Source: Candidatus Magasanikiibacteriota bacterium | GTDB taxonomy: Bacteria > Patescibacteriota > Patescibacteriia > Magasanikbacterales > GWA2-37-8 | Length of the DNA stretch: 64,000 nt | Assembly (NCBI GenBank): GCA_963802255.1 | Contig: CAWDHY010000002.1 | Location: 83,984 to 147,983 of the forward strand | Direction: 5' to 3' | Part shown: piece after piece, positions 6,411 through 63,051 of the stretch | Layout: each line of letters begins with the position of its first letter | Numbering within the stretch: the first letter of the stretch is position 1 | Made by a program: the position numbers and the translations under genes | Notes under the pieces: generated by a model | The model's input: only the letters and a program-made list of their open reading frames with translations | Database searches by the model: none | Told to the model about the DNA's origin: nothing

Positions 6411-7193
6411 TTAGTCGGAACCTTCTTTTCTTATCGCTCTTCGTGGCTGAGGTTTTTCAATCTCAGGTTTTTTCTCATCTTTTGGCGCTTCCATCTTTTT
6501 TCTTTCAAATTCCTTTTTACCTTCGTTTATCGCTTCAGCCAAAAGATCGGCCATAATTTTAATTGAATTTACCGCGTCATCGTTTGCCGGAATCGGATAG
6601 TCCGCGTCATGCGGGTTAACATTGGTATCGCAAATGCCGATTACCGGTACATGCCTGCGGGTTGTCTCCGCTAAAGCGGTCTTTTCCGTGCGCATATCGG
6701 CGATATATATTGCATCCGGCATTTTTTCCAAATTAGACAGACCAACCAAATATCTATCCATTTTTTCCAAATCTTTTTTGAATTTTACCTGTTCTTTTTT
6801 GGTGTATTTTTCAACTTCTCCTGAAGCCATTTGTTCGTGCATGCTGTGATATTTTCTCAACCGGCGTTTTACTTCTTCAAAATTGGTTAAAAGTCCGCCG
6901 ATCCATCGTTCAACTAAATATGGCATCCCGCAAGAATCAGCTGCGGCTTTTATCAAGTCGCGGGTCTGGCGTTTGGTGCCGACAAATAAAATAACCTTGC
7001 CTTCAGCGGCGAGGTTCTTCGCGTAATCAAGAGCCTTCTCGAGCATTTCGAGAGTTTTCTCCAGATCAATAATATGAATTCCCCCGCGAGCGCCGTATAT
7101 ATACGGTTGCATTTTGGGGTGCCAACGGGATTTCTGATGACCAAAATGAATTCCGGCTTTCAGTAAATCCAGCAAAGACGGTAGCTTTGACAT
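6411..7193 (-). CDS. rpsB: 30S ribosomal protein S2, with a Lys/Glu-rich C-terminal tail
   Basis: MSKLPSLLDLLKAGIHFGHQKSRWHPKMQPYIYGARGGIHIIDLEKT is the canonical S2 N-terminus. The start is taken at the internal Met (7193). The rpsB-tsf operon order is conserved. Confidence 0.9.
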   Translation of the reverse strand: MSKLPSLLDLLKAGIHFGHQKSRWHPKMQPYIYGARGGIHIIDLEKTLEMLEKALDYAKNLAAEGKVILFVGTKRQTRDLIKAAADSCGMPYLVERWIGGLLTNFEEVKRRLRKYHSMHEQMASGEVEKYTKKEQVKFKKDLEKMDRYLVGLSNLEKMPDAIYIADMRTEKTALAETTRRHVPVIGICDTNVNPHDADYPIPANDDAVNSIKIMADLLAEAINEGKKEFERKKMEAPKDEKKPEIEKPQPRRAIRKEGSD

Positions 7194-17770: not shown

Positions 17771-19825
17771 TTATTGTAGATCAAACTCTTTAATTTTTTC
17801 CCATTTGCTTTCGTCCAGCACGGTAATATTTTCATTTCCGATCAAATACATGTAATCATCCAGGTAAATAGCCCGCTGCACCTGCGTATCACTTACCGCT
17901 TTTTTGAGTGATAACTCATCATTGTCATATCCAAACACATACCCGCCTTGTCCCCCCGGAATAAAAAATACTTTATGCTTTTCATCTAAAAGAAACGCAT
18001 GATGATTGTTAATAGCTTCGGACCAATACTCGCTTAAAATATATTTTGATGTTTCTTTCGGATTTTCCGGAGAAGTCGCGTCAAAAATCGACAATTTTAC
18101 TTTTCCATCTTCACGCCCAATACCAAGTACCTTGTGATTTCCGAGCGGGTGTAAATATGAAGAGAATCCCGGAATTTTCAGCTCTCCGCGCAGTACGGGA
18201 TTTTTAGGATTAGCTAAGTCTAAAACATAAAATGGATCTGTTTCCCGAAAGGTAACCACATATCCCCGGTCACCCAAAAAGCGCACTGAATAAATACGTT
18301 CGGTTTCGCCTAAATCTTTCACCGACCCAACGACCTTCAAATTATTGTCGAGCACATACACATCACTTACTGTTTTTCCACTGCCGCCAAATCCTCCCAT
18401 TCCCCACCAACGTTCTCCGACTGTCATAGCAACGCGCAAATTCTTTTCGTATTCATCAAGCGAAAATTGGTTAAGTGGATGGCCTGGTACAATCTCGGCA
18501 ATCGCTTTAAAATCATTCAGAGAAATTTTTACTATGCCGGTCATATCCAATTCTCTCCGATGGTTCAAATAAAACTTGTCCATCCGATTGGACATTTCAT
18601 TTTGCATTTTTAGCATATCGTCATTATCAAGCGAATTGGTATATTGTTGCAAAATGGATTGCAATTCTGTTTGTTTTGCATTCGCGCTTAAATCGTATCC
18701 TTTCACCTTGTTAAGGCGTTCCATCACCCAATCCGGCACCAAATCTTTATTTTCGGAGAAGAAATCATAAGCAACTTTTACTGAATCTATCTCTGTCTGA
18801 AAAGTCAGATAAATTGCGTTTTCAGACATATAAAAAACGGTCTGCCCGGATGAACCGACGAAAGCTGTCTTCTTCTCCACTGCTCCGGTCTTGGTATCCA
18901 TTACCAAAAAATTATAGGTAACATCAGCGCCTGAAGCGGAAGTCGGATAATAAATATCAGTACAAGCGATACTAACCTCGTCTTTGCCAACGGTCAGAGG
19001 CACTATCGGACATGGCCTTCCATAATCAACACCACTTTGCGTTGTCAGATAAATTTTATTGTTCATCAAACGGGCGCCAACCAAATTTTCACGGTCGCCC
19101 AATTTGGCAGACCATAATTCTTTCGGGCTGGTTTTATCTGTTACATCATAAGCGTAAATTTTGTTATCACCGGCGAAAACCATCAAAATATTTCCATCCA
19201 GTAAAAGATTCCCATTTTTATCAATCTTGGAATCTTCTTTCATTTCAGCGGGGGGGAATGCGGTAATTAATTTCGTCTCTCCCTGGTTATAGTATGGCGG
19301 GGCAATCATCTTTTCCGCCGAACCGGTCATCGGTGTGGCGCGTAAATATGGATAATATCCGCCAAAACGCGAAAAATATATTTCTTTGCCGTCTGTTTTG
19401 ACAATATCTGGCTCGTCAATACCGGCAACTTGCACATTTGTTTCCGAAACACGGCCTGCCGATGGGGCTGAACTGTCCATGACAGCAGATCCTTTTTCTG
19501 ATATTCCCATTGCTACAGGCTGGGCCATATCTACCGCCATTTCGCGGACGGCAACTCCGCCACCAATACCAAAACTATAATTATTTGTCTGTTGTGAATG
19601 ATCAGCCAGATATTTTTTAAACTCGTCAACAGAAACAAATTTTTTCACTTCCGCTGTTACACCGGATAAATTATCCGCCCCTGAATTTCTTCCAATTATA
19701 CTGTTTTCCAGTACAAATTTTAAGTCACCCCGGGTGGCGGCAAAAACAAGAATCCCCCCGCAAATAACAAAAATCACCGCCAAAATGGCAAAGCCGATTT
19801 TTGTTCCAACTTCTCTGTGAAACAT
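17771..19825 (-). CDS. Membrane-anchored, secreted beta-propeller domain protein
   Basis: 684 aa. N-terminal transmembrane helix, then long extracellular region. C-terminal part (ETDPFYVLDLANPKNPVLRGELKIPGFSSYLHP...) resembles the 'beta propeller domain' family of secreted archaeal/bacterial proteins. Confidence 0.5.
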   Translation of the reverse strand: MFHREVGTKIGFAILAVIFVICGGILVFAATRGDLKFVLENSIIGRNSGADNLSGVTAEVKKFVSVDEFKKYLADHSQQTNNYSFGIGGGVAVREMAVDMAQPVAMGISEKGSAVMDSSAPSAGRVSETNVQVAGIDEPDIVKTDGKEIYFSRFGGYYPYLRATPMTGSAEKMIAPPYYNQGETKLITAFPPAEMKEDSKIDKNGNLLLDGNILMVFAGDNKIYAYDVTDKTSPKELWSAKLGDRENLVGARLMNNKIYLTTQSGVDYGRPCPIVPLTVGKDEVSIACTDIYYPTSASGADVTYNFLVMDTKTGAVEKKTAFVGSSGQTVFYMSENAIYLTFQTEIDSVKVAYDFFSENKDLVPDWVMERLNKVKGYDLSANAKQTELQSILQQYTNSLDNDDMLKMQNEMSNRMDKFYLNHRRELDMTGIVKISLNDFKAIAEIVPGHPLNQFSLDEYEKNLRVAMTVGERWWGMGGFGGSGKTVSDVYVLDNNLKVVGSVKDLGETERIYSVRFLGDRGYVVTFRETDPFYVLDLANPKNPVLRGELKIPGFSSYLHPLGNHKVLGIGREDGKVKLSIFDATSPENPKETSKYILSEYWSEAINNHHAFLLDEKHKVFFIPGGQGGYVFGYDNDELSLKKAVSDTQVQRAIYLDDYMYLIGNENITVLDESKWEKIKEFDLQ

Positions 19826-33751: not shown

Positions 33752-34124
33752 TGTCATTCTGAGCGAAGCGAAGAATCCCTTAACTCCATTCTTCACTCAA
33801 ATCTTTCCACTGTGGATTAACAGTTTTTATCAAATTTGCCTTTTTCATCCTCAACCAGCCCTTTATTGTTTTTTCTCTCGCAATCGCATTATTTATGTCA
33901 GAAAAATATTCATAGTATACTAATCTTTTGCAACCATATTTTTTTGTAAATCCCTCAATCAAACCCTGCTTATGTTCGGAAATGCGTCGTTCCAAATTGT
34001 TGGTGACGCCAACATAAAGCGTACCGGTAGCGCTTGACAAAATGTATACGTAAAAATTGTAATTCCGCATATTTTTACGCAAGGGATCCTTCAGTCGCCC
34101 TTTTAGGACTCCCTCAGGATGACA
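33752..34124. mobile_element. Putative small mobile element: a GIY-YIG nuclease gene bounded by inverted TGTCATYCTGAG...CTCAGGATGACA repeat arms of the same family as the MITE-like repeats elsewhere in the window
   Basis: Left arm 33752..33779 tgtcattctgagcgaagcgaagaatccc abuts the ORF stop. Right arm 34082..34124 agggatccttcagtcgccc...ctccctcaggatgaca is the reverse-complement version, 11 nt upstream of the ORF start. Confidence 0.5.
33780..34070 (-). CDS. Small GIY-YIG nuclease family protein (YhbQ/COG2827-like)
   Basis: MRNYNFYVYILSSATGTLYVGVTNNLERRISEHKQG is a GIY-YIG motif. The start is taken at the internal Met (34070), because the upstream in-frame extension lies inside the repeat arm. 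Confidence 0.7.
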   Translation of the reverse strand: MRNYNFYVYILSSATGTLYVGVTNNLERRISEHKQGLIEGFTKKYGCKRLVYYEYFSDINNAIAREKTIKGWLRMKKANLIKTVNPQWKDLSEEWS

Positions 34125-34202
34125 TGGTGAACGATAGCCAAAAGCCCCGGCATCTTGCGATACTAGGGGGTCATAAAACAATACCTATATTTTCTCACAC
34201 TG

Positions 34203-36338
34203 TCAATGTTTCTTCAATTCTCTTACCTCATCCCGCAAAATCGCTGCCAGTTCAAATTCCAAATTCTTGGCCGCTTCGCGCATTTGCTTTTCTTTGTCTT
34301 TGATAATTTCCGCAATCGGGCGCGCGTCACCGATTGTATCTAGTTTCGCGATTGACTCGGCTTGTTTTTGCCGGAATGATTTCTTATTTTTATCTTTTGT
34401 AGAAGTAATTCCAAACTCTTCCAAAATATTTCTGATAGTCTTTTCAATCGTCTTTGGCGTAATTCCATGTTTCATATTATACGCCAGCTGAATTTTCCGG
34501 CGTCTTTCCGTTTCGCGGATGGCACGCTTAATTGAGCCTGTTATTTCGTCGGCATATAACACTACCAGCCCGTTGATATTGCGGGCGGCACGCCCGATTG
34601 TTTGGACAAGTGATGTGGTGCTGCGCAAAAAACCTTCTTTATCCGCGTCTAAAATTGCCACAAAAGAGACCTCAGGCATGTCTAAACCTTCCCGCAACAA
34701 ATTCACGCCGACAATCACGTCAATATTACCACGGCGCAAATCGGTAATAATTTCTATGCGCTCAACCGTCTTGATGTCGCTATGCAAATATTTTACTTTA
34801 ACTTTTTTCTTCTCAAGATACTCTGATAAGTCTTCAGCCATTTTTTTTGTGAGCGTTGTCACCAAAACCCGTTCTCCTTTTTTGACGCGCTCATCAATAC
34901 GGATAAGCAAATCTTCGATTTGGGATAGATGCGGTTTGTCATCCTGAGCGTTAGCGAAGGATCCCTCGATGGTAGATTTAAGGGATTCTTCACTTCGCTG
35001 CGCTTCGTTCAGAATGACAGACGAACCCGCTCGCCCCGTAACCGGGCGAATGATTACTTCGGGGTCAATTAAACCTGTCGGGCGAACAATTTGTTCAGCC
35101 ACCTGACGGCTTGCAAGAATTTCATATTCATCAGGCGTGGCTGACATGTAAATTGTTTTATCTGTTTTGCTTTCAAATTCAGCGTAATCAAGAGGCCGGT
35201 TATCTCTGGCAGAGGGCAGCCTGAAACCGTGTTCAATTAAGACATCCTTCCGCGATTTATCGCCGGCGTACATTCCGCGTATTTGCGGTACGGTTACATG
35301 CGATTCATCGATAATTGTCAAAAAACGGCCCCGATCCCCTGTTTTTTCAGTCCCATATAAAAAATAATCCAACAGGGTGAAAGGCGGCTCACCTGAAATG
35401 CGTCCGTCAAAATGTCGAGAGTAATTTTCTATGCCGTTACAGTAACCAATATTTTTTATCATTTCCAAATCATAATTCGTCCGGCGTTTCAGCCGTTCGT
35501 ATTCCAATACTTTTCCTGCTTTTTCAAATTTTTTGAGCTGTGATTTTAATTCTTCACGAATTTCTTTAAACGCTGTCTCTTTTACTCCCTCATCAACTAC
35601 ATAATGTTTTGACGGAAAAAGCCACAGATCACTTTGTGTTCTGACAACTTTTCGCGTAATTGGATCAATTACTTCAATATATTCAATTTTTTCCGAAATG
35701 CCAAAACGATAAATTTTTTCTTCATTTACCGGCATTATTTCAAATACCTGCCCATGAAGACGAAACGAACCGCGCTTTAAATCGGAATTTGTTCTTTCAA
35801 ATTGCATATCAACCAGCTGCTTCAACATATCCCTGCGATTTAGCGCGTCGTTAACCGACAAGTGCAAAACAATTTTTTCATATTCTTTCGGCGAACCCAA
35901 GCCGTAAATAGCGGAAACTGAAGCAACAATTATTACATCACGGCGCGTAAGCAAGGCTTGCGTGCAGGCGTGACGCAGACGATCAATTTCGTCATTAATC
36001 ATCGCCTCTTTTTCTATATAAGTATCCGTATTTGGTAAATATGCTTCCGGCTGATAATAGTCATAATAGGAAACAAAATATTCGACCGCGTTTTCCGGAA
36101 AAAATTCACGGAACTCATTACAAAGCTGGGCAGCCAAAGTTTTATTATGCGCTATTACCAACGTCGGCATTTGAACTTTTTCAATTACGCTTGCGGCTGT
36201 AAATGTCTTGCCTGAACCGGTAACGCCAAGCAAGGTTTGTTTATCAAACCCCTTATTTAAACCATCGACCAATTGGTCGATGGCCTTGGGCTGATCTCCA
36301 GCCGGTTTGTATTTTGAATGCAATTTAAATGCAGACAT
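34203..36338 (-). CDS. uvrB: Excinuclease ABC subunit B, carrying an in-frame repeat-element insertion
   Basis: GVTGSGKTF Walker A, helicase motifs and a C-terminal UVR motif. A stretch of about 27 aa (RAGSSVILNEAQRSEESLKSTIEGSFANAQDDKPH) lies where other UvrB have ...IDPEVEVRP-TKGQIDDL... Confidence 0.9.
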   Translation of the reverse strand: MSAFKLHSKYKPAGDQPKAIDQLVDGLNKGFDKQTLLGVTGSGKTFTAASVIEKVQMPTLVIAHNKTLAAQLCNEFREFFPENAVEYFVSYYDYYQPEAYLPNTDTYIEKEAMINDEIDRLRHACTQALLTRRDVIIVASVSAIYGLGSPKEYEKIVLHLSVNDALNRRDMLKQLVDMQFERTNSDLKRGSFRLHGQVFEIMPVNEEKIYRFGISEKIEYIEVIDPITRKVVRTQSDLWLFPSKHYVVDEGVKETAFKEIREELKSQLKKFEKAGKVLEYERLKRRTNYDLEMIKNIGYCNGIENYSRHFDGRISGEPPFTLLDYFLYGTEKTGDRGRFLTIIDESHVTVPQIRGMYAGDKSRKDVLIEHGFRLPSARDNRPLDYAEFESKTDKTIYMSATPDEYEILASRQVAEQIVRPTGLIDPEVIIRPVTGRAGSSVILNEAQRSEESLKSTIEGSFANAQDDKPHLSQIEDLLIRIDERVKKGERVLVTTLTKKMAEDLSEYLEKKKVKVKYLHSDIKTVERIEIITDLRRGNIDVIVGVNLLREGLDMPEVSFVAILDADKEGFLRSTTSLVQTIGRAARNINGLVVLYADEITGSIKRAIRETERRRKIQLAYNMKHGITPKTIEKTIRNILEEFGITSTKDKNKKSFRQKQAESIAKLDTIGDARPIAEIIKDKEKQMREAAKNLEFELAAILRDEVRELKKH
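34937..35019. repeat. MITE-like imperfect palindromic repeat (about 83 bp) inserted inside the uvrB reading frame
   Basis: tgtcatcctgagcgttagcgaaggatccct ... agggattcttcacttcgctgcgcttcgttcagaatgaca. The arms are reverse complements of each other and of the arms at 33752 and 34124. Confidence 0.65.
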
Positions 36339-47233: not shown

Positions 47234-49720
47234 TTAGATCACTATGCTGACCAGTTTTCCTTTTACATAAATTACTTTCTTCGGTTCTCTTCCGTTAAGC
47301 CATTTTTGCACCTTTTCACTTGTCAGAGCCAAATCTTTGGCTTCCGATTCAGATATTTCCGCCGAAACTTCCAAAGTATCACGCAATTTGCCATTAACCT
47401 GTACAGCCAGAGTAATTTCAGAATCTTTTGCCAATTTTTCATCGTATTCCGGCCATTTTTCCAGAGCCAAACAGGATTTACAACCAAGCGTCTGCCAAAT
47501 TTCTTCACACATATGCGGGGCAAAAGGCGATAATATTAAAATCAGCAAACCATAATATTCACCGCTTATTTTTTCTTCCTTTGATATTTCATTTATCAGC
47601 TCCATCATCTTCGCAATCGCGGTATTAAAGCGTAGTGACTCAACATTGTGCGTTACTTTTTTGATAGTTTGATGCATTATCCGTGTCATTCTTTCCGGCA
47701 CCGTATATTCAGAATCAATTTTTTCCTGTAAATGCCAGATACGCTCCAGAAATCTGCGGACACCTTTAACCCCATTAGTGTCCCAGGGCTTATCCGCTTC
47801 AAGTGGCCCCATGAACATCTCATAACAGCGCATTGTATCAGCGCCAAATTCTTCAACCACATCTGTCGGATTTATCACATTACCCCAGCGTTTACTCATT
47901 TTATGATTATCTTCGCCCAAAATCATACCTTGATGGCGATGCTTCAAAAACGGTTCGTCAAAATCAATATAACCGGCGTCAAATAATACTTTTGTAAAAA
48001 ATCGGGCATACAAAAGATGGCTGTTAACATGTTCCGGACCACCCAAATAAAAATCCACGGGCATCCATGTTTTAAGGGATTCAGCGGAAGCAAATGCTTT
48101 GTCATTATGCGGGTCAAGATAGCGATAAAAATACCAGCTGGAACACATAAAAGTGTCCAGTGTATCCGGTTCACGATGCCAGCCTTTACCATATTTTTTC
48201 TCAACGCCCTTGTTAAAACTTTTTGAATAATTTAAAGGCGATTCACCGGTTGGCTTAAAATCAACATCATCGGGTAAAATTACCGGTAAATCTTCTTCCG
48301 GCACCGGATGTAATTCATTTTTATCGTCATAAAGAACCGGAATTGGCGCGCCCCAAAATCGCTGACGTGAAACAGACCAGTCGCGGAGTTTGTATTGGAT
48401 TTTTCGTTTTCCCTTCCCCTCTTTTTCCAGCCAATCAATAATTTTTTTTGATGCCTCTTTGGTAGATAGACCGTTTATGAAACCAGAATTAATTGAGACG
48501 CCTTCGCCGGTAAAACATTTTTTTTCAGCGCCCTCCTGGATTCCCGCCTGCGCGGGAATGACAACTTCTGTAATCTCCAAACCATATTTTTTGGCAAACT
48601 CAAAATCACGCTCATCATGAGCCGGAACGGCCATAATAGCACCAAAGCCATAAGAAGCCAAAACATAGTCGGCGATAAAAACCGAAACTTCTTCATTGTT
48701 GACTGGATTAATAGCCTTAACACCTTTCAGCTCTACGCCGGTCTTATCTTTTTGTGTCTGACGATCAAGGTCGGTTTTTAATTTTGTTTCGTTTATATAT
48801 TTTTCAACTTCATCCCAGTTTTGAATCTTATCTTTCAATTTATCTAACAACTTATGCTCTGGCGCTAAAACCATAAAAGTAGCGCCAAACAAAGTATCCG
48901 GACGGGTGGTAAAAACTTCAATTGTCATCCCCGACCCGGTCGGGGATCCAGAGGGTGACTGGATTCCCGCCGGAGCCTGCCCTCGACTACGATCGGGGGC
49001 GGGAATGACATTAAACGAAACCTCAGCGCCTTCACTGCGCCCGATCCAATCCTTCTGCCGTTTCTTTGTTTCTTCCGGCCAATCCAGTTTATCCAAATCA
49101 TTTATCAGCCGGTCGGCATAATCGGTAATTTTTAAATACCACTGTTCCATTTCGCGCTGTTCAACAATAGTTTCGCAACGCTCACACTTGCCATCTGTGG
49201 TCACTTGCTCATTGGCAAGAACCGTCTTGCATGAATCACACCAATTTACAGACTGTTTTTTTCGGTAGGCCAAACCGCGTTTGTAAAACAAAAGAAAAAA
49301 CCATTGCGTCCATTTATAATAATCCGGATTATGAGAACCGACTTCCCTACCCCAGTCGGCTGAAACTCCGAGCACCTTTATCTGCCGTCTAAACATATCT
49401 ATCGCCTGGTCGGTGCTTTTTCGTGGGTGAACATTAGTTTTAATCGCATAATTTTCCGCCGGCAAACCAAAAGCATCCCAGCCAATCACCTGCAAGACTT
49501 TTTTACCCGTCATACGCTTATAGCGGGCAAAAATATCACAAGCAGTATAAACTTCGGCATGGCCGACATGCAGGCCCGAGCCGGACGGATACGGCAACTG
49601 TGGCAAAATGTAATATTTATCGCCGCGCGAGGCGTCAATTGGCGTTTGGAAGATTTTTTCTTTTTCCCAGCGTTTCTGCCATTTTTTTTCAATTTTCGCC
49701 GGATTGTATGAATTGCCCAT
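47234..49720 (-). CDS. leuS: Leucine--tRNA ligase, carrying two in-frame repeat-derived insertions
   Basis: MGNSYNPAKIEKKWQKRWEKEKIFQ...PYPSGSGLHVGHAEVY...KMSKRWGN. The odd PAPDRSRGQAPAGIQSPSGSPTGSGMT and VIPAQAGIQEG segments correspond to palindromic DNA repeats. Confidence 0.95.
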   Translation of the reverse strand: MGNSYNPAKIEKKWQKRWEKEKIFQTPIDASRGDKYYILPQLPYPSGSGLHVGHAEVYTACDIFARYKRMTGKKVLQVIGWDAFGLPAENYAIKTNVHPRKSTDQAIDMFRRQIKVLGVSADWGREVGSHNPDYYKWTQWFFLLFYKRGLAYRKKQSVNWCDSCKTVLANEQVTTDGKCERCETIVEQREMEQWYLKITDYADRLINDLDKLDWPEETKKRQKDWIGRSEGAEVSFNVIPAPDRSRGQAPAGIQSPSGSPTGSGMTIEVFTTRPDTLFGATFMVLAPEHKLLDKLKDKIQNWDEVEKYINETKLKTDLDRQTQKDKTGVELKGVKAINPVNNEEVSVFIADYVLASYGFGAIMAVPAHDERDFEFAKKYGLEITEVVIPAQAGIQEGAEKKCFTGEGVSINSGFINGLSTKEASKKIIDWLEKEGKGKRKIQYKLRDWSVSRQRFWGAPIPVLYDDKNELHPVPEEDLPVILPDDVDFKPTGESPLNYSKSFNKGVEKKYGKGWHREPDTLDTFMCSSWYFYRYLDPHNDKAFASAESLKTWMPVDFYLGGPEHVNSHLLYARFFTKVLFDAGYIDFDEPFLKHRHQGMILGEDNHKMSKRWGNVINPTDVVEEFGADTMRCYEMFMGPLEADKPWDTNGVKGVRRFLERIWHLQEKIDSEYTVPERMTRIMHQTIKKVTHNVESLRFNTAIAKMMELINEISKEEKISGEYYGLLILILSPFAPHMCEEIWQTLGCKSCLALEKWPEYDEKLAKDSEITLAVQVNGKLRDTLEVSAEISESEAKDLALTSEKVQKWLNGREPKKVIYVKGKLVSIVI
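48538..48563. repeat. Partial palindromic repeat (one TGTCATTCCC terminus plus the ATTCCCGC/GCGGGAAT palindrome) in-frame in leuS
   Basis: ggattcccgcctgcgcgggaatgaca. Encodes VIPAQAGIQ on the coding strand. Confidence 0.5.
48923..49010. repeat. MITE-like 88-bp palindromic element with TGTCATYCC/GGRATGACA termini, inserted in-frame in leuS
   Basis: tgtcatccccgacccggtcggggatcc...ggattcccgccggagcctgccctcgactacgatcgggggcgggaatgaca. Contains two internal sub-palindromes. Encodes a segment of about 27 aa where E. coli LeuS has about 7 aa. Confidence 0.6.
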
Positions 49721-49895: not shown

Positions 49896-51329
49896 TTACA
49901 GATCGCGGACGCAGCGGATGTAATACGATTCATACTCGATATCCCAGCACTGTTCGCTCACAGAACTGAATTCGAGGGACAGATAGCCGTCGGTGCAACT
50001 ATCCGAAGACCAGTAAAAATATTCGCAACTGCCGCCCATGGCCGGTGACCAGTAACAACCACCTGCACCAGGGCCCTCTCCCGATTCGCACGGGGGATCG
50101 TCGCAACCAGTAACGAGCTGGTACAGCTCAGAAAGAGCCGGCATCCTCCAGTCGTCATGACCACCGAGCAACAAGGTGTCGGCGCAATAGGTCTGAACAG
50201 CGGCCCAGGTGTAAGTTCCGTCAGGAGGCGTCAACTGCCACCCCAAGCCGTTCACCGAATCGATGTACATACCCGCTCCGACGGATGCGTCGTAGGGGGC
50301 TTCGTCCTCACAGGGCGCAGTCGGAACGGTGCAGTCGGCGGTGTTGGCGACGTCGTCGCCGTTAGCATCATTCGGGACGCCATCACCGTCGATATCGTCA
50401 TCCAATGCATTCGGCGTACCATCGCCGTCCATGTCGGCCGCCTGGTTAGCATCAGGCAAATCCGTTTCTTCGCCGGTCTTGCTCTCCAAGTAGTCGGCCA
50501 GATTCTGCACACAGTCAGCGATGGGATCCAGGGCGGCTTCGCCGTTTCTGAGGTACTGCTTGTATTCGGCGCTGATCACACCACTGGTCTGAAGTTGGCT
50601 TCTGATATCGTTGACAAGCTCCTGAAGCCGGGCATCGACTTCGTTGACATCGGCCGCTCTCAATTCAGCTGCCTTGCCAATGATGCAGCTGACCGCCATG
50701 ATGTACTGGTTGTCAGGGCTATCGACGCCGGTCAGATCCATTTCAGTGCCGTGTCCTACTAGGCCCCCAAGCGGGTGTTGAATGCCGAGTTCCTCGAACA
50801 AAGCGTCCTCGGACGCGGCGACCGCTTCGGCTACCACGGTGTAGGTGCCTTCGCGGAAGTCCTTTAGAGCGAGACCGGACGACATGTGAGTGAAGACGTT
50901 GAGATACGCCTCCTGCGGGTCGCCACCGATGATCTCGTAAAGAGCCCGCAGAGTGATGGGTGCGCCGGACAAACTGTCAGTGATCTCGTTGTAGTAAAAA
51001 CCTTCACCGATGAGTTCACACGGACCGGATGTCGCCGCCACCACATTGAACGCGCCAAGCTCGTCTTCGGTGGTCGTGGCGTAGTTGTCACCGGTCGGAG
51101 CACCAGCAGAGTCGAGCATGGAGACAGTCAGTGAGCTCCCCTGAATGAGGGGCCCCTTCTGCATGGCTCCGGTCAAAGTGACGGAGCCGGAATTGTTGTT
51201 GTCTCCATTTCCACCATTGTCATCATCACAGGAAACGCTCAACATGGCGAGACACGCCAACATCGCGAACAAATACTTCAACATTTTTCTACCTCGCTTG
51301 CGGGTTTTTGTAACCCGTTGGTTTACCAA
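49896..51329 (-). CDS. High-GC lipoprotein with thrombospondin type-3-like Ca-binding repeats and a C-terminal DUF1566-like (CLec-fold) domain
   Basis: Signal peptide plus lipobox (LSVSC). DMDGDGTPNALDDDIDGDGVPNDANGDD repeats. GHDDWRMPALSELYQLV and a terminal ...YYIRCVRDL resemble the DUF1566/Lcl-like domain. GC about 58% against about 40% elsewhere. Confidence 0.6.
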   Translation of the reverse strand: MVNQRVTKTRKRGRKMLKYLFAMLACLAMLSVSCDDDNGGNGDNNNSGSVTLTGAMQKGPLIQGSSLTVSMLDSAGAPTGDNYATTTEDELGAFNVVAATSGPCELIGEGFYYNEITDSLSGAPITLRALYEIIGGDPQEAYLNVFTHMSSGLALKDFREGTYTVVAEAVAASEDALFEELGIQHPLGGLVGHGTEMDLTGVDSPDNQYIMAVSCIIGKAAELRAADVNEVDARLQELVNDIRSQLQTSGVISAEYKQYLRNGEAALDPIADCVQNLADYLESKTGEETDLPDANQAADMDGDGTPNALDDDIDGDGVPNDANGDDVANTADCTVPTAPCEDEAPYDASVGAGMYIDSVNGLGWQLTPPDGTYTWAAVQTYCADTLLLGGHDDWRMPALSELYQLVTGCDDPPCESGEGPGAGGCYWSPAMGGSCEYFYWSSDSCTDGYLSLEFSSVSEQCWDIEYESYYIRCVRDL

Positions 51330-51396: not shown

Positions 51397-51489
51397 TGTC
51401 ATCCTGAATAAAATGAAAAATCTGTAATCTGTGATCCCGCATTCGCGTGAATGACAAGTAAAAAGATTCTTCGCTTTGTCCAGAATGTC
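51397..51489. repeat. Intergenic cluster of MITE-like repeat copies (one element with TGTCATCC...GAATGACA termini plus a degenerate family-A arm)
   Basis: tgtcatcctgaataaaatg...gatcccgcattcgcgtgaatgaca, then agattcttcgctttgtccagaatgtca. Confidence 0.45.
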
Positions 51490-51632
51490 AAGTATTTATG
51501 GAACTAATTCATCAATTCTATTAACTAACGATTGTACCAATTGTCACAATATAAAACGGATGAACTACTTATAATATACCTCTTTTATGGCTTTTGTCAA
51601 GAGTGTAACCCAATATTTCATCATATCTTAGC

Positions 51633-51657: not shown

Positions 51658-54600
51658 GCTAATCGATCGCTGGCGGTGTTTCAGCTGGAGGAGTTTCAGG
51701 AGCGGGTTCAGGTGGCGGTGTTTCAGCTGGAGGAGTTTCAGGAGCGGGTTCAGGTGGCGGTGTTTCAATTACTGGTTCAACAACCGGTTCCGTTTCTTCC
51801 GGTTCAATAATTGGTTCATCGACCACCGGATCGGATGGTTCCGGATCATCTGAAGGAGAAAGAGGAGCCGTCACTCCACCATCTCCTCCAGTTGATTCCG
51901 GTATCGTTACCGGAATATCTGAACTAACTAAATCATTACTTATTTTACGTTTGGCGATCACCATCCAGTCAAACGATGCATTTGATGTACCGCCGTCTAA
52001 CTCTTTCACTTTAAAACCTTGTGCCGTCTTTTCAATCACCGCTACACCTTTTGCTTCAATGGAAGTCAAAGTAACACTGACTTTTATCGGAGCAGATTCA
52101 TCAATAATTTCCTGTGTGTCCGTGGCAAAAGTAATTATTGCTTCACCCATCTCTAAGACACCAGCTCCAGAAAGCGTAATCTCAGCCAATTCTGATGCCA
52201 TGCCATAAATATTTTTTTCACCCTGGCTGGTCGTCACTCTTGCGATAAGCAAACCATTTTCATCAATAGACCAGCTGTTATTTTTACCAATAATTTTTAA
52301 AACATTTAATATCGCATTTCCGGCTAAATCTAAAGCTCCGGTACCGGAATATGAAATAGTTCCTCCGCTCGCGCCAACACTTAAATCACCCGGATCAGTA
52401 CCAATATCAATACCTGTTTCAGCGGCAATAATCTGCACCTGTTGTTCCAGTTTTGCCGCTGCTTCTGTCTTGTTGTATACCCAACCCGTACGAATTAAGG
52501 TAATAATTTTTCCATCTGTAGAAACACCGGAATTTTCAAGCGCGATACCAATAATACCCACAACTTTTCGTGAATTGTCCACTTTTGGATCATATTTCAT
52601 CGCCTTTCCCGGTTCTGAAGCGGATACGAGCAAATCACCGCGCGATATTTCTCCATTTTCTAGAGAATATTTAACCGGCACCCGTCCAACCATTGCGAGC
52701 GGAGCTGTCTGGTCTGTTTTTCCATTGCCCACGATAATAGTTGGATTGGTTGAAATAACACCGGCCACTGTCGGCTCATAAGCAATGTTTGATTTTTGAT
52801 ATCTGTCCGCAGATGTCGGGTCTACCATCATCACATCACCGGCTTCAACTATTTCAGCCGGATTAATATCCACTTTTTCCGCCAAATCTCCAGGATTAGT
52901 GGAAGTACCAAGCACTGCGGATGCGGCATACATATTTCCGGCGCTGTGGACATCGCCATTTGCTGATACTGAAAAGACAGGATTGTTATTTGAGCGGAGA
53001 GATAAAATATAATTATCAGCCGTTGAAGTGTTAAAATTCAAAGCGTTGAAGATGAATGCGCGGGTGCCGGGGGTCGAGATGACTGAAGATTCAAAGATGG
53101 TGGAGGTAGAGAAAGAAAGCTTGTGGCCGGAAACAGCGCTCTCGGCTGTGGCCAGGAAATTAACATCACCGGTCAGATTGAGAGTATATGGTTCGGAGGC
53201 GGAACCGATGGTGAGCGACTGAGTTGAGGTAACGACATCAAAAGCCGTGTCCAGAGGTTCAATTATGTTTTGCTGGGCTTTAGCGACTTCGGTGAGGAAA
53301 CCGACATAATGGTCGTAATCTAAAGTAAGATACGGGTGCTCTTCATCACCTGATTGAGTAACTAGCTCGGGTAATACAGCTTGAACTTCCTGAGCAATCA
53401 TACCAACTTGACGCGATGTCGTCGCCGATTCATAACCCGGCTTGGAAGTGTCCCAGAAATAATATACACCGCGCAAACTCTTTAAAGCTTCGAGTACATC
53501 AAGAGAACCGGAAATGTCAGTAACATCCGTCTTAACCTCCTCGTCGGAATTTGTACAAGTAGTACCTGAGTAGAGCAAGCCGGCAGTACTAATACAAATA
53601 TAGTAGGCATTGGCTTTCTCTTTCCAATAGTATACATCGGCATTAATGTTACCAAGATAAATATCGTAAGTTGTTGATGCAACTGCATTACCCCCAATAG
53701 CAGTAGAGTATAAAGCATTTGCAGAGGTGTTATACCCAAGTGCTAAAGTATAGTTCGCGTTTGCATCAGAATCATAACCAACTGCAATAGCGTCGATTCC
53801 ATTCGCATAAGCGGCGTACCCTAACGCCAACGAATTGAGCCCCAGCGCACTGGCGCCATTACCGATCGCCGTGGCGTAGTCATCATCCACTTGAGCATCC
53901 GTACCTACTGCGGTAGCACCATTAACCTCTATACCAGTATCAACACTATACCCGATTAATACATTATTATCGGTTGAGGTTACATGGCTACCGACGCCAG
54001 TACCAATGGCAACGTTATATGCACCGCTATCATTATTTAATATTGCATCAGCACCTAAGGCGATATTGCCCGTCGCCAAGGAACCATATCTCATTGCCCT
54101 CGCTCCAATCAAAGTATTTGAAGTTCCTGTAAGTTCATAACCTGCTTCATTTCCTAGGGCGGTATTATTATTACCAGTTGTATTAGTATACAAAGCACTA
54201 TAACCAATAGCGGTGTTGGCATTGCCGACAGTAATTTGATAACCTGAGCGATAACCCAACGAATTATTTTTCTCGCCTGAACGAAGGTTCGCCATAGCAT
54301 CCATGCCAATGCCTACCGTATTCGCCATCCCAAAGTTCGTATTAGTTAACGCATTACGCCCAATTGCAATATTACCGTCAGTGGACGTGACACCGAATAG
54401 TGCCATGTAACCTATACCGATATTATTATTGCCGCTAATATTCGAAGTCAAAGAGTAGTTCCCCAATGCGACATTGTAATCACCGCTTGTATTTGCGTCC
54501 AACGTTCCATAACCTATAGCGGTGTTTTCCATTCCATTAGTGTTCGACATTAAAGCCGAGCCTCCGACAGCGGTGCTCATTAACCCCGTAGTATTATCGC

Positions 54601-56299
54601 GAAGCGACCAAAACCCAACAGCTGTGTTAAATAATCCGGTAGTATTAGCATTTAATGAACGATAACCAACTGCGGTATTAGAAGCGGCGGTGTTGTTCTG
54701 CAGGGCTTCATACCCAACTGCCACGTTGGCATAAGAAGACGTGTTGTTCAATAGAGACCTGCCCCCCAACGCTACATTATACGAACCGGTTATATTATCG
54801 CGTAAAGCGGCGCGGCCAAGGGCGGCGTTGTCAGCGCCCGTAGTATTGTAAGGCATGGTGCCATAACCGACAGCGGTATTGCTATCTCCCGTGACTGACG
54901 CTAAAGCCGCGGCTCCAAGAGCGGTATTATAATTGCCCGTAGCAGTAATCATGGCCGAAGCTCCGACGGCAGTATTTGCATTACCAGTGCTATTTAGAGA
55001 AAGCGCTTCAGAACCAAATGCGGAATTGGCGACACCGGTGGTGTTGCCGCGCATGGCTTTGTAACCGACTGCCGCGCTGGAAGTACCGGTGGTGTTGCTG
55101 TACAACGACTCATAACCGACGGCAGTGTTAGAAGCGGCAGTGTTAAACATCAACGCAGAATAACCGATGCCCACATTCCCCCAATTGGTTGTGAGTGTTG
55201 CCAACGCTCCAACACCGACTCCAACGTTTCTTGAGCCACTCGTTAAACCATATAACGAACCTATACCCACATTTTCATTGCCGCTGGTATTAAGATAAAG
55301 TGAATTATAACCAAAAGCAATATTAGAATTGCCGGTAGTATTTGCTGTTAACGCATTTGTACCGACCGCAGTATTCCAGCTCGCGGCGTATCCGGTATTG
55401 CTATACAAAGCTTTGGACCCAACAGCTACATTACCAACTCCTTCATCATTGGCGTATAATGCTTGATAACCAAGCGCGGTATTATTCATTCCTCTGCCTG
55501 ACAGCAAATTCACTTTATTATTATATAATGCTTGATAACCGACGGCGGTTGAAGAAGGACCGACTTCATTAAAAAGCGCTTGATAACCGACTGCGACATT
55601 GGCATTATGGTCAGATGAAGTGCCGATAGCCAAAGCGTTATAGCCCAAAGCAACATTAAAAGAACCATACAAATTACTATAAAGCGCATAATTTCCTAAA
55701 GCAATATTACTACTCCCTGTAATATTTTGAGGAAGCGTAGTGTCGCCTATTGCCGTATTTCCTTGCCCAGTGGTATTGGAATAAAGCGTCGTGTTACCTA
55801 TGGCAGTATTAGCTAAGCCAAGTGTATTTGAATACAATGCTGTATAACCAACTGCAGTATTGTTAAGACCAACGGTATTGGAATATAACGATCGATAACC
55901 AACTGCAACATTTCTTAAGCCCCCCATACCGCCAATTAAAGAATTAAAGCCATAATAATTATTCGCCAGAGCTTCGTAACCTATCGCCGTGTTTGAAGCC
56001 GCAGTATTTGAATACAAAGCGCCATAGCCGATAGCAACATTGGCCGGACTGCTTGTATTCGCGGTTAAAGATTTGTAACCAAAAGCGGTGTTGTAATACC
56101 CGCTTGTATTATTATATGCGGCGCTTACACCAAAAGCCGAATTACCATAACCGCTTGTATTATTCAATAAAGCTAGATAACCACTCGCGGTATTATTACC
56201 CCCAGTCATTGTTAAATTGCCGGAATTACCCACGAAATAATTATTTAGCGAGGTGGAAGCCATGGCAAAATTAACGTTGTTATATTTATAATAGGCCTC

Positions 56300-58000
56300 G
56301 GCCGATATATTTATACTTCCTTTTATGTCTACCTTATTAAGCGGGGTGGTGGTGCCGATGCCAACAAAGTCACCAATGCTGGTCAATCTCACCACCGAAC
56401 CGTCATCAGTCCAGCCACCAGATGTTGATATGGTAGAAGAATTTACCCAAGTCGGAGCAGCGGAAACGCCATTTGACATCAATACGTATCCAGCGGTACC
56501 CGCATCATAATTATTCCCCACTCTGATTGTACCCGTTACTGCCAAACTACCAGCGACAGATAAGTTAAACGCCGGAGTGGTGGTACCGATACCAACATTA
56601 CCACCGTTAAAATAAGAATTACCGTTGGCATTTAAATATATTTTTTCATCTGCATTACTATACATAGATAACAAACCCACTGTTGCGCCACTGGCATTTG
56701 TATGGTGGAGTTTAATAGCAATTCTATTATCATCCGTTCCGCTTAATAATATACCATCACCGCCGCTTGCCGATAAAACATGTAATTTGCTTGCTGGTGT
56801 GGTGGTACCAATGCCGACGTTACCGCCGTTAAAATATGACGCACCGGAACCGGCAACTTTAATATTTTCCGTGACACCTCCATATAATGATAGATAACCG
56901 ATGTTGCCGCTGGCGCCATTATAATACATTTTTGCCGCCACGTTGCTATTTCCGCTCAATAATATGCCATCGTTATCGCTGGTGACATTTACCTGTAATT
57001 TATTTGATGGAGTGGTCGTACCGATACCAACATTGCCACCAGTGAAATATGAATCACCTAAAGCGGTAATTACTGTTCTTGTAGCATTGGCCTCATATAA
57101 ATTCAGGCTACCTGCTGAGTTTACAGCGCTGGAATTTATCCAATTCAACTTGGCAACGAGTTGATCATAGCGCCCACTTAAAAAAATACCGTCATATTGC
57201 GTGTCTGTAAGAACATGTAACTTAGCTGCCGGAGTTGTCGTACCGATACCAACATTGCCACCATTAAAATATGACACACCTGAACCGGCAACTTTAACAT
57301 TTTCCGTGACGCCTCCATATAATGATAGATAACCGATATTGCCACTGGAACCATTATAATACATTTTTGCCGCCACGTTGCTATTTCCGCTCAATAATAT
57401 GCCATCGTTATCGCTAGTAACATTTACCTGTAATTTATTTGATGGGGTGGTCGTGCCGATACCAAAAACACTACTTACAAACGAACTACCTGTTGAACGC
57501 CCGGTCAATCGCACACTCTCAACACTGTTTTCAAAAACACTCATTCCACCAAATTCTAGACCGAGACCGGAATTATAGGAATTGCCTAATACAACATTCG
57601 GCGTGCCAGTTGGACTTAAAAGCACCACTCCATCACTCGCCGCTGCTTGTATCATTAATTTGTATGCCGGAGTTGTCGTACCAATACCAACATTGCCACC
57701 ATTAAAATATGACACACCTGAACCGGCAACTTTAACATTTTCTACGCCGCCTCCATATAATGATAGATAACCGATATTGCCGCTGGCGCCATTAAAATAC
57801 ATTTTTGCCGCCACATTGCTATTTCCGCTCAATAATATGCCATCGTTATCGCTGGTGACATTTACCTGTAATTTATTTGATGGAGTGGTCGTGCCGATAC
57901 CAACGCTATCAGTAATTGTCGTCAATCTCACCACCGTTCCATCATCTGTCCATCCGCCGGCTGAAGCGATTCCTAAAGAAGATGTAGCGATCCAAGTAAA
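56300..58000. repeat. Near-identical tandem repeats of about 400-435 bp inside the giant CDS
   Basis: The antisense ORFs at 56943, 57378 and 57777 begin with the identical peptide MLFPLNNMPSLSLVTFTCNLFDGVVVPIPTLPP. This reflects repeated GGNVGIGTTTP... coding modules on the sense strand. Confidence 0.6.
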
Positions 58001-61000
58001 ATTACTGCCGTTATAGGTTAACACATTTCCAACGGCTGATGGGGCGCTACTTGAAGCCAGATCAACCGGTGCAATTGAATTATTAATTATTTCACTTGAT
58101 CCAACCGCATTAGCGGATATGGTTAAAGCACCAGTGTTGGATATTGTTGCGTCACTGCTCATAGAAACAGCGGTTGCAACACCCGAGGCATTCCCAACCC
58201 AGATATATGCAGAGGCAAGAGCCGTGCTCATTAAACCGAGTGTTGAGGTGGAAACCCATGTTGGGGCACCGGCGGCATTTGACCTTAAAATCTGGCCGGA
58301 TGTGCCAACAGCGGTCGCCATATAAGATGTACCATTGGAATATGTTACTGAACCGGCTGCACCGATAGTTGAAGAGTTGGTACCGCCGCGTACGATAGGC
58401 AGAATCCCGGATGTAATTTGGCTGGCGGCAATAGCGATAGTATTTGTAGTAATAGAAGTAACGCGACCATAAGTATCAACTGTGATGTTCGGAGTGGTGG
58501 AAACTGAACCGTATGTTGATGCAGTGACGCCGGATGTAGCAAGACCAACAGTTGTAGCTGATGAACCATTATAGGAAAAAGTGGCAATGCCAGTACCTTG
58601 CGAAAGCGTGGCGTGAGTATGTGTAGAAGTGGAAAAAGTTGTTGAAGCAACCCAGGTGAATTGCGAATCTGAATTATACGCAAGCAAAGCCTGGTACGTC
58701 GGAGCGGTATTAGTCGCAGTTTTAAGCGGGGTGACTTTGCCGATGCCGATAGTTGGATTTGGATAGGTACCGGTCAGGTCTCCACCGGCAGCACCGGAGG
58801 CGGTGATGCCAAGAGTGGTGGTGTTGACCCACGACAAACCCGAACCGGTTGTCTGTAATATCTGACCATTACTTCCGGCACTGCCATTCGTTCGTAAAGC
58901 ACCGGTTAAGTTAGTGTCACCGGAAACAGTCAGTGGGTAACCTGGGGTCGTTGTATTAACGCCAACCTTTCCTCCCATAAGCGCAATCGTGTTGACTTGA
59001 GAAATTGTCGGATTATTCGTAGTACTGACATTCACTCCAAAAGAATAATTGCCACTGACAGTAAATGAGTTGCCAATAGCAACAGAGTTATAACCACTGG
59101 AAGTGACTGATTTGCCGATGGCATATGATTCATTGGTAACGACAGAGTTTCTACCAATAGCAACGGCGCCATAACCGCCGTAACCGGAAACAGTATTTTG
59201 ATAACCGATGGCCATGGAACTTTCTGAACCAGAAGCAATAATATTATCACGGCCAAGAACGACTGAATGATCACTATTTATCGTGTTATTATAACCAAAA
59301 ACCGAAGAATAATTACTGCCAACCGTATTATTTCTTCCTGATATTATTGAATACTGTCCGGTTGATGTATTGTATGCTCCGAAAATTGCTGTATATAACG
59401 CGCCGGAATTTACATTGTTATCACCAGCAGTAAACGCGTAATTTCCGCCGGAATTAATATTGTTGGAACCGAATACGGCTGAAAAACTACCACTTGAATC
59501 ATTGTCAGAACCTGCTACAAATGACGCCTGTCCGCTTGATGTGCTGTTATTGCCAATCGCAACGCTGGACAGACCAGTTGCTCTGGCATTATTACCGATA
59601 GCCGTAGCATAACTGTTTGAAGATTGCGCCTGATAACCTATGGCAACTGAATTAAGATTTTCCGCTGACGCAAGATTGCCAATCGCGATTGAATTATTAC
59701 TATAAGAATGAGCACCTGAACCCATGGCAATAGAACTGTAGCCGGATGCTATCGGAGAAGAACCGCCAATAGCTACAGCTAAATCATTTGTCGCCGCTGC
59801 TAAACTTCCCATGGCAATCGAATTCGTTCCTGTGGCCTGACTATTTAACCCCTGGACAAAGGATCCCGGCCCTAACGAAAAAGTATAGTTGTCGCCTACT
59901 GACAACGAACCAAGCGCGTTATCCCAAACAAGGGTATTTGTAGCATCAAAAAATCCGTCTGTATAAAATTGTATTTGTCCGTTTGCTCCGGCCGGTGAAG
60001 AAGTTGTATCTGTATCAGTGTCTACAAAACCAAGAGAAGATGTGGAAGACCAAGATAATATCCCACTTCCATTATTTAGTAAGACAGTATTAACATCGCC
60101 TTGAGTATCTGGCCAAAGATAAGGTATGCTCTTAATTCTTGTAATGTCGCCATCATCATCGACCCGGAATTGTTGTGACTCGCCGACATTTAATAACCCC
60201 GTTCCTGAATACGATGTCGTACCAATATTTAAACCGGGTAATATTGCCGATTTAGTCCATGCGGAAATAAATACTGTCGGTGCCACAGAGTTATTATATA
60301 AAGCTAAAAAGCCTGAGTGGTTACTGCCTATATTATAATGACCTAAAAATGTTGTTGGAGTTCCTCCCCCGGCAATAGATATTCCATCAAACAATCCGGC
60401 GCCAACAGTAGAATCAATAGTAAGTTTTGTTACAGGCGATGTAGTGTTAATTCCTACATTACCACCCATGAGAGCAATAATATTATTACCGGAAATTGTT
60501 GCCGGCGCTGTACTCGTGGCGTTAATGCCAAAAGAATAATTTCCACTAACTGTCATGTCATAACCAAAAGCTACAGAGCCGATTCCACTCACTGTATTAT
60601 TGTATCCGCCACCTATAAACGAGCCCCCGTTCGCACCACTAATATCATTGTAAGTTCCACCTCCAATAAACGAATTGGCCGCAAAGCCGCCGGTTGTATT
60701 AAATTGCCCGCCACCAATAAACGAATAATTCCCGGTTGCCGAATTTGAGTAGCCACCACCGATAAAACTATGATGGCTATCTATATTGTTGCTCTCGCCG
60801 GTGATAAAAGAATTTGAACCGCTATATGTATTGTTATAAATATTATTTGAGCTGCCAAAAACTCCGCTATTTTGTCCCGCGATGGTATTGTTGTAACCAA
60901 AAACATGAGAATAATCTGCCGTGACGGTATTGCTACCGCCCAAAGCGCTGGAATATGTTGAGGTGACATTGTTGAATCCACCGGCAACTAATACTGACTG

Positions 61001-61212
61001 CGCGGAATCAGTTAGATGATTGTTTGAACCAAAAACCGCGTTATATTGAGCGCTGGGGCTTAACAGTGAAGAACCAATGGTATTACCAAGACCTGTGATG
61101 ATTGAATAATATGCAGATGAAGTGTTCACCGCTCCGAACACCGCATTACCGGAACCGGCATCTTTATTTGATTCACCAGCAATAAAAGATGTGTAACCTG
61201 ATGCTAAATTAT

Positions 61213-63051
<1,839 letters not shown>

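Follow-up and report, generated by a model that had tools for sequence, protein, structure and literature searches.

A palindromic dimer of hairpin units in frame in uvrB of a patescibacterium and its probable place in the TGTC-tagged repeat superfamily

The subject of this report is a repeat element in the uvrB gene of a Candidatus Magasanikiibacteriota bacterium, located in a window of 64,000 nt (positions 83,984 to 147,983 of contig CAWDHY010000002.1, assembly GCA_963802255.1; "the window" means this whole stretch). An 83-bp imperfect palindrome lies in frame within the gene, and the best explanation overall, held with high confidence, is that two units of the TGTC/CGTC-tagged superfamily of repetitive extragenic palindromic (REP) sequences, inverted with respect to each other (head-to-head), make up a non-autonomous selfish repeat. 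To this superfamily belong Neisseria dRS3/NTS and Rickettsia RPE-4 and RPE-6, and its units were renamed Ssn-related motifs (SRM) by Chenal et al. (2025). A preliminary description made from the DNA letters recognized the palindrome but overlooked its dimer nature, the palindrome being two oriented hairpin units, and overlooked an Ssn-type GIY-YIG gene which lies 78 bp downstream of the uvrB stop codon and carries the same units on both sides.

The palindrome and its repeat units

The palindrome begins and ends as TGTCATCCTGAGCG...CGTTCAGAATGACA, and its full letters are TGTCATCCTGAGCGTTAGCGAAGGATCCCT cgatggtagattta AGGGATTCTTCACTTCGCTGCGCTTCGTTCAGAATGACA. A repeat finder delimited outer arms of 17 nt with 82% complementarity and inner arms of 14 nt with 86%, and with weaker pairing included the edges extend to about 34931..35030. 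The RNA fold of the 97-nt stretch reached -35.7 kcal/mol, compared with -20.4 +/- 3.2 kcal/mol in 200 dinucleotide shuffles of this stretch (z = -4.76), none of which (0/200) folded as well. The palindrome is real and non-random, and its sequence, arms and fold together with the Pfam domains of the gene agree with the earlier claim of an 83-bp imperfect palindrome at 34937..35019 in an intact uvrB open reading frame (ORF) of 711 aa.

The anatomy of the units comprises an unpaired TGTC tag, an AT-started stem, and a short C-rich tail. TGTC followed by AT opens both uvrB arms, both units flanking the ssn gene and the units in leuS, while CCC forms the tail of the uvrB arms and of the units next to ssn, and the leuS units end in CCA. 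Both the uvrB and the leuS dimers are head-to-head, as are 15 further dimers in related loci (loci from related genomes bear L-numbers here). Folded alone as single-stranded DNA, the short uvrB arm gave -3.7 kcal/mol (5 bp, G.A/A.G mismatches, 2 bp, and a 4-nt loop), and the long arm folded irregularly at -1.1 kcal/mol, which is not significant; the single unit in leuS formed an 8-bp stem with a 4-nt loop at -8.9 kcal/mol (z = -4.3).

REPs with a CGTC tag (CGTC-1 to -4), often present as TGTC, were described by Di Nocera, De Gregorio, and Rocco (2013, BMC Genomics 14:522; PMC3733652) as mostly head-to-head dimers of units with a stem of 8-9 bp whose first pairs are A-T and T-A, a 4-5 nt loop, and a 3-nt unpaired tail near CCA. 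The CGTC/TGTC superfamily takes in dRS3 of Neisseria and the Rickettsia palindromic elements (RPE) RPE-6 and RPE-4 of R. conorii (PMC3733652). The arms of the uvrB palindrome are TGTC-tagged REP units, that is, members of the superfamily of RPE-4 and RPE-6, and the preliminary description erred in placing the palindrome in a different repeat family from the Rickettsia elements; the likeness in behaviour to in-frame Rickettsia elements which it had drawn was borne out, as the insert is absent from orthologs, the frame is kept, and the gene is intact. No dedicated enzyme was known for CGTC REPs as of 2013 (PMC3733652). In Chenal et al. study (2025, Nat Commun 16:2388; PMC11893778) the Ssn proteins were characterized as single-domain GIY-YIG nucleases of about 94 aa, specific for single-stranded DNA, which recognize a hairpin repeat by binding and make their cut immediately upstream of the repeat; the Neisseria repeat is NTS, CGTCATTCCCGCGMAVGCGGGAATCYRG. 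SRM were reported on both sides of 42% of ssn homologs, and the repeat-gene-repeat layout was likened by the authors to insertion sequences (PMC11893778).

The published SRM pattern, HGTCWYN(0-2)YYVSBRHN(0-5)WNVSBRGN(0-2)RNCYNB (Chenal 2025), was hand-built from 29 genomes of 4 phyla (PMC11893778), and its only match in the window is 48536..48563 in leuS. Because it misses the uvrB arms, a simpler detector (tag, AT-started stem, and C) was used with shuffled controls; it returned 9 tag-plus-hairpin units in the window, where 0.3 were expected and 200 dinucleotide shuffles gave at most 2. Of the nine, those at 33074 and 47684 have the look of chance hits, and 5 of the 7 convincing units are located in coding sequence. 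No Rfam family passed its gathering threshold anywhere in the window. Since the published pattern is unmatched and the hairpins are weak when taken alone, the uvrB arms are, judged by their sequence, a divergent subtype.

The insertion in uvrB

In the uvrB copy the reading frame is kept and no stop codon occurs. Solved UvrB structures align to residues 2-436 and 472-710 of the query and leave residues 437-471 unmatched; the corresponding 34926..35030 equals the 83-bp core plus about 10 nt of altered flank per side. The inserted peptide stands between PTGLIDPEVIIRPVTG and LSQIEDLL. In an alignment of 120 UvrB orthologs the closest insert-free ones (P0003-P0017, 80-83% identity) carry GKKGGLS at the linker, in the context ...RPVTGKKGGLSQIEDL..., and relative to them the net gain is 93 nt or 31 aa, with the DNA comparison made against L001. 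The insertion postulated by the preliminary description was confirmed by this short linker, while its figure of about 27 extra residues is right for the 83-bp core only and too low for the net insertion of 31 aa. A palindrome-free segment of the same length in close relatives, which would have argued for ordinary divergence, was looked for among the orthologs and was not found.

The segment is an inserted repeat element and not the product of ordinary divergence, because close orthologs lack it and arms with 93-94% identity occur at other loci. In particular, one uvrA copy in L060 agrees with the window uvrB arms at 34/36 positions of the long arm and 27/29 positions of the short arm, has a spacer unrelated to the uvrB spacer, and encodes DVILNGAKRSEESLENNKGSFAIAQDDK. 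An ordinary lineage-specific expansion of the linker or an assembly artefact, in either case with no mobile element involved, is barely credible. For the former it can be said that the linker of Magasanikbacteria is already 6 aa longer than in other bacteria and that the length of the site is variable, but expansion explains neither the near-identical arms at unrelated loci and around ssn nor the significance of the palindrome. Against an artefact, a 255-kb contig is recorded with the identical protein, and related inserts are found in independent assemblies.

The removal of the inserted element after transcription or translation, in the manner of an intron or intein, has a very small chance of being correct. 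A conserved site in a conserved gene beside a GIY-YIG nuclease gene is superficially like the setting of homing elements; however, Rfam gave no match anywhere in the window, 83 nt is too short for a self-splicing intron, no intein motifs are present, and the frame is open in every full-length ortholog listed, with the reservation that full-length matches are biased to open frames, although for an element that escapes translation there would be no reason to keep the frame open. In addition, the characterized Ssn enzymes are inactive on RNA or double-stranded DNA (PMC11893778).

The AlphaFold model of UvrB, built with 53 aligned sequences, has a mean predicted local distance difference test (pLDDT) score of 75.7, and its lowest-confidence segment is residues 437-469 (block means 29-40), which sit between strand 427-431 and helix 473-486 with confidence of 84-86. 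The insert site falls between the SATP motif and the LVTTLTKKMAEDL motif, an interval which we take to be the junction of the two RecA-like domains of UvrB. All residues invariant across the 53 orthologs are kept in the window protein. Structure alignments and AlphaFold both place the insert in an inter-domain loop, as had been expected in the preliminary description, and translation probably turns it into a flexible loop on the surface, about 31 residues longer than the usual linker and tolerated by the protein.

It is also conceivable, though unlikely, that the insert is adaptive, either by altering UvrB activity with a mutator or altered-repair effect, which is a speculation of Di Nocera et al. 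(PMC3733652), or as an internal Ssn target or RNA hairpin controlling recombination, transformation, or uvrB expression. REPs recur in nucleotide-excision-repair genes of unrelated phyla (PMC3733652), NTS-gene-NTS arrangements modulate transformation in Neisseria (PMC11893778), and the complementarity of the arms has been maintained, all of which would fit an adaptive role; on the other hand, close relatives live without the insert, its peptide is predicted to be disordered and varies in sequence between lineages, and the same repeats are also present in leuS, uvrA, and intergenic DNA.

Recurrence at the UvrB linker

Extra residues (8 or more) exactly at the linker were found in 36 of the 120 orthologs, and at least 19 of those 36 show a translated repeat signature. 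On a neighbour-joining tree the insert-bearing UvrB proteins are scattered, each beside insert-free sisters with the 7-aa linker. At the DNA level the stem subtypes at the linker are TCATTCTGA, TCATTCCGA, TCATCCTGAG, TCATTGCGA, and TCATTCCCGTG; in L008 a single canonical unit is present. All three reading frames are used: T GTC ATT in most copies, G TG TCA TTG in L086, and CAT CCT GAG in L087. Because of the three frames, the several subtypes, and the scattered distribution beside insert-free sisters, several independent insertions at the linker are the simplest reading of these sequences.

The opposite possibility, in which a single ancient linker insertion was inherited vertically, diverged, and was precisely lost many times, so that the hot spot is an artefact of history, seems improbable. 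The window and L003 copies are of equal length (35 aa) with the left flank GGTTCGTC in common, most linker copies are in one frame (VI...ND), and palindromes are prone to deletion. This scenario, however, does not account for three frames at the site, which were confirmed on DNA, for both single units and dimers with at least five stem subtypes, or for insert-bearing sequences scattered beside sisters with the 7-aa insert-free linker; moreover L001, which has no insert, is nearer to L003, which has one (61% identity at third codon positions), than either is to the window (52-54%).

Two side observations concern the same protein. In L060 (~4234..4300) uvrB is apparently frameshifted just after RPVTGKEGE, at the same linker, which may be an assembly indel and not biology. 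A second variable site lies near residue 331, where the window protein has YGTEKTGDRGRF and is 9 aa longer than solved structures; 18 of the 120 orthologs carry 8-54 extra residues there, some of which are tagged-repeat peptides (VIASEAKQS..., ...PPRNDN), while others apparently belong to a different proline- and glycine-rich family (NPTQPPLGKG, PLTKGG).

The neighbouring ssn gene

The gene next to uvrB encodes a protein of 96 aa and is bracketed by inverted units at 33752 (+) and 34124 (-), the latter having the form TGTCATCCTGAGG...GAAGGATC and ending at 34124 (Table 1). Apart from the GIY-YIG domain, the protein has a second, marginal Pfam match over the same stretch to the GIY-YIG-related T5orf172 (E = 7e-4), and in NCBIfam only a model of group I intron endonucleases was matched, below threshold. 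With a 94-aa ORF of N. gonorrhoeae it shares 48% identity (E = 3e-26); this ORF is probably the ortholog of the 94-aa SsnA of N. meningitidis (Chenal 2025), because seven exact NTS surround it within 1.4 kb. The resemblance to this NTS-flanked ORF is what placed the protein in the Ssn nuclease family (putatively cd10448). Identities of 44-62% were found with GIY-YIG proteins of Planktothrix, Spirosoma, Rhizobium, Sinorhizobium, Azospirillum, and Novosphingobium; among solved structures the best matches were UPF0213 proteins, at a far greater distance (E = 1.6e-7). As the same units bracket ssn, the uvrB copy looks like a gene-less miniature of the repeat-ssn-repeat unit. Within 3 kb of uvrB in 83 related loci (80 from a genome scan and L001-L003) no other ssn gene was found.

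A longer reading of the gene, the 133-aa ORF 33780..34181 with a TTG start, was rejected, since it arises when the frame is read on through the upstream repeat: part of its first 37 residues (...SPCHPEGVLKGRLKDPL...) is translated repeat, and the GIY-YIG domain starts at the ATG at 34070. Separately, the closest plasmid-borne homolog of the 96-aa protein (62% identity) is encoded on Planktothrix agardhii plasmid NZ_LR882964.1 at 18847..19131 (L085), where its neighbours are a restriction-modification gene of MmeI type on one side and drmA, the DISARM helicase gene, on the other; no unit was found within 600 bp of it in a search with the published SRM and NTS patterns alone.

Table 1. Coordinates of uvrB, its insert, the ssn gene, and the repeat units of the window
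Feature	Coordinates	Strand	Details
uvrB, intact host gene	34203..36338	-	711 aa; all UvrB Pfam domains present
UvrB codons 437-471 (105 nt)	34926..35030	-	without counterpart in solved UvrB structures; disordered in AlphaFold
83-bp core within the uvrB frame, probably two TGTC-tagged REP / SRM units joined head-to-head	34937..35019	.	encodes SVILNEAQRSEESLKSTIEGSFANAQDDK
Long arm, read first in uvrB direction	34984..35019	-	TGTCATTCTGAACGAAGCGCAGCGAAGTGAAGAATC; TGTC tag, stem start ATTCT/AGAAT, irregular interior
Short arm	34937..34963	+	TGTCATCCTGAGCGTTAGCGAAGGATC; TGTC tag, 5-bp AT-started stem, tandem G.A mismatches, 2 more pairs, 4-nt loop
Unit tails and central spacer	34964..34983	.	spacer differs between copies
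ssn homolog, single-domain GIY-YIG protein	33780..34070	-	96 aa; Pfam GIY-YIG E = 1.6e-17
SRM unit at ssn 3' end	33752..33777	+	TGTCATTCTGAGCGAAGCGAAGAATC; 5 nt from uvrA start codon
SRM unit at ssn 5' end	34085..34124	-	TGTCATCCTGAGGGAGTCCTAAAAGGGCGACTGAAGGATC; degenerate interior
Whole repeat-ssn-repeat unit (373 nt)	33752..34124	.	absent from the site in L060 and L003; 88-nt gene-less dimer in L001
Canonical single SRM, in frame in leuS	48536..48563	-	TGTCATTCCCGCGCAGGCGGGAATCCAG; encodes VIPAQAGIQ
Head-to-head SRM dimer, in frame in leuS	48923..49010	.	VIPAPDRSRGQAPAGIQSPSGSPTGSGMT; adds 22 aa compared with LeuRS of T. thermophilus
Degenerate intergenic cluster of SRM-like units	51397..51493	.	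three or four tagged units

Other copies in the window and in related genomes

Within the window, the essential gene leuS (47234..49720, -) contains two in-frame copies, of which the dimer is located just before the conserved FTTRPDT motif, and the degenerate cluster is intergenic, with the ORF 49896..51329 on one side and the beginning of a 3217-aa ORF (51659..61312) on the other. In relatives, in-frame dimers were found in uvrA of L001, L009 (two), L018 (two and a single unit), L058, and L060 (two), and both L060 inserts are absent from the highly similar uvrA of the window.

The site just upstream of the uvrA start exists in three states: empty in L060 (6117..6129) and L003 (6282..6294), occupied by an 88-nt gene-less dimer in L001 (7110..7197), and occupied by the 373-nt repeat-ssn-repeat in the window (33752..34124). 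The stem subtype of the L001 dimer is ATTGC/GCAAT, unlike that of the window units. The junctions of inserted elements are blurred, with 10-15 nt per junction differing from empty sites.

At five junctions, located in uvrB and the uvrB-uvrA spacer (window 35020..35030 and 34125..34135; L003 ~4471..4484; L008 ~4285..4292; L001 ~7100..7109), the TGTCAT tag is preceded at a distance of 0-3 nt by a motif GTTC(A/G)(C/T)C. Empty sites lack this motif, which may be coincidental or may belong to the unit that moved.

Comparison with known systems

The closest likeness is to the CGTC/TGTC REPs, with which the window units share the TGTC tag, the AT-started stem, the C-rich tail, and the arrangement as head-to-head dimers. 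In Di Nocera et al. study in-frame REPs were reported in a uvrB homologue, uvrC, dnaE, and tRNA synthetases, with dimers encoding 20-30 aa; they were strikingly frequent in repair genes, and the UvrABC and tRNA synthetase genes were favoured (PMC3733652). The repeats described here agree with this in their in-frame dimers encoding 20-30 aa and in having Uvr and tRNA synthetase genes among their hosts, and the window leuS peptide VIPAQAGIQ comes very close to the R. conorii CGTC-1 peptide VIPAKAGI. In R. conorii RC0550 the repeat occupies residues 537-545. The differences are that the stems of the window uvrB arms have 5 + 2 bp with tandem G.A mismatches, where the published units have a clean stem of 8-9 bp and a loop of 4-5 nt, that one of these arms has a duplicated interior of about 10 nt, that a large share of the window units is intragenic, and that the host phylum is Patescibacteria, which is not among the five phyla of the published host list (PMC3733652).

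The Ssn/SRM system is matched by a single-domain GIY-YIG protein of about 95 aa whose gene stands between two inverted tagged hairpin repeats. In contrast to it, the window uvrB arms and the ssn-flanking units fail the SRM pattern, the nuclease activity of the window protein is putative, and the genomic distribution is different, since only 2% of NTS are intragenic in N. meningitidis (PMC11893778), whereas most of the convincing window units are found inside genes.

RPE-1 (Ogata et al.; Claverie and Ogata 2003) is similar as an in-frame palindromic repeat in functional genes of a small-genome bacterium which yields a tolerated surface peptide; however, it is a longer element and was kept apart from the CGTC units by Di Nocera et al., a distinction made here by description. 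The REP/BIME elements with RAYT transposases (REPtrons) and the IS200/IS605 group likewise have hairpin repeats flanking a gene for an enzyme with single-stranded hairpins as its substrate, with gene-less dimers scattered in the genome, but the window enzyme is a GIY-YIG nuclease and not an HUH/Y1 transposase. From a MITE (a miniature transposable element with inverted repeats) or transposon the window element differs by having no target-site duplication or defined ends.

The repeat kind, the in-frame behaviour, the preference for Uvr genes, and the enzyme partner are all already published, and this is not a new kind of system. What is apparently new is the host group, in which the repeats are seen with a divergent arm subtype and a well-documented recurrent site; a search of a paper library found no paper joining Patescibacteria or the candidate phyla radiation (CPR) with REP, MITE, or palindromic elements.

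Proposed mechanism and its difficulties

By homology with the characterized Neisseria and Wolbachia enzymes, the 96-aa protein would recognize and bind the hairpin of one of the two DNA strands, and would nick DNA in single-stranded form immediately upstream of the tag. As a guess about copying, Ssn may nick exposed single strands, after which repair or recombination would copy a repeat-containing donor, and selection would retain only in-frame copies in permissive loops. One such copy would have inserted at the UvrB linker that joins the two RecA-like helicase domains, where it may persist because the loop is tolerated; the linker would then act as a permissive site that filters insertions, and local spread from the uvrB-uvrA spacer may add to its recurrence.

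Several points weigh against the explanation of the palindrome as a dimer of mobile TGTC-tagged units inserted repeatedly at a tolerated loop. To our knowledge, nobody has shown the mobility mechanism of the CGTC-REP/Ssn family, and we know of no transposition chemistry in GIY-YIG enzymes. Neither the uvrB arms nor the ssn-flanking units match the published SRM pattern, and the weak, non-significant hairpins of the single uvrB arms (-3.7 and -1.1 kcal/mol) leave their status as Ssn substrates putative. A target-site duplication, a clean target motif or a clean boundary was looked for at 17 elements (16 dimers and the repeat-ssn-repeat), and none was found. The translation of the loop is read from the open frame only, and recurrence is deduced for most orthologs from the neighbour-joining tree and peptide signatures. 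Finally, the window and L003 copies could be one event, because their left flank and total length are shared.

Beyond the dimer itself, it is possible, although we would regard this as tentative and rather doubtful, that the UvrB linker, uvrA, and the uvrB-uvrA spacer form a true hot spot for Ssn-associated repeats in Patescibacteria, whose site states record the movement of repeats and ssn. Such movement could proceed by local hopping from the spacer or by recombination between genomes. If the hot spot is true, its filled, empty, and gene-carrying states would be the first natural record of repeat and ssn movement and would make the mobility mechanism of the CGTC-REP/Ssn family testable.

Significance

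In summary, the repeats described here add the ultra-small Patescibacteria to the hosts of a known class of selfish hairpin repeats and of the nuclease recently identified as its partner. In the genomes of these bacteria there is little intergenic space, and many copies lie inside essential or repair genes as extra protein loops. For annotation this means that the repeats lengthen proteins and create false N-terminal extensions, as in the 133-aa reading of ssn. The three states at one site, together with the repeated insertions in the UvrB linker, are useful material for studying how Ssn-associated repeats spread.

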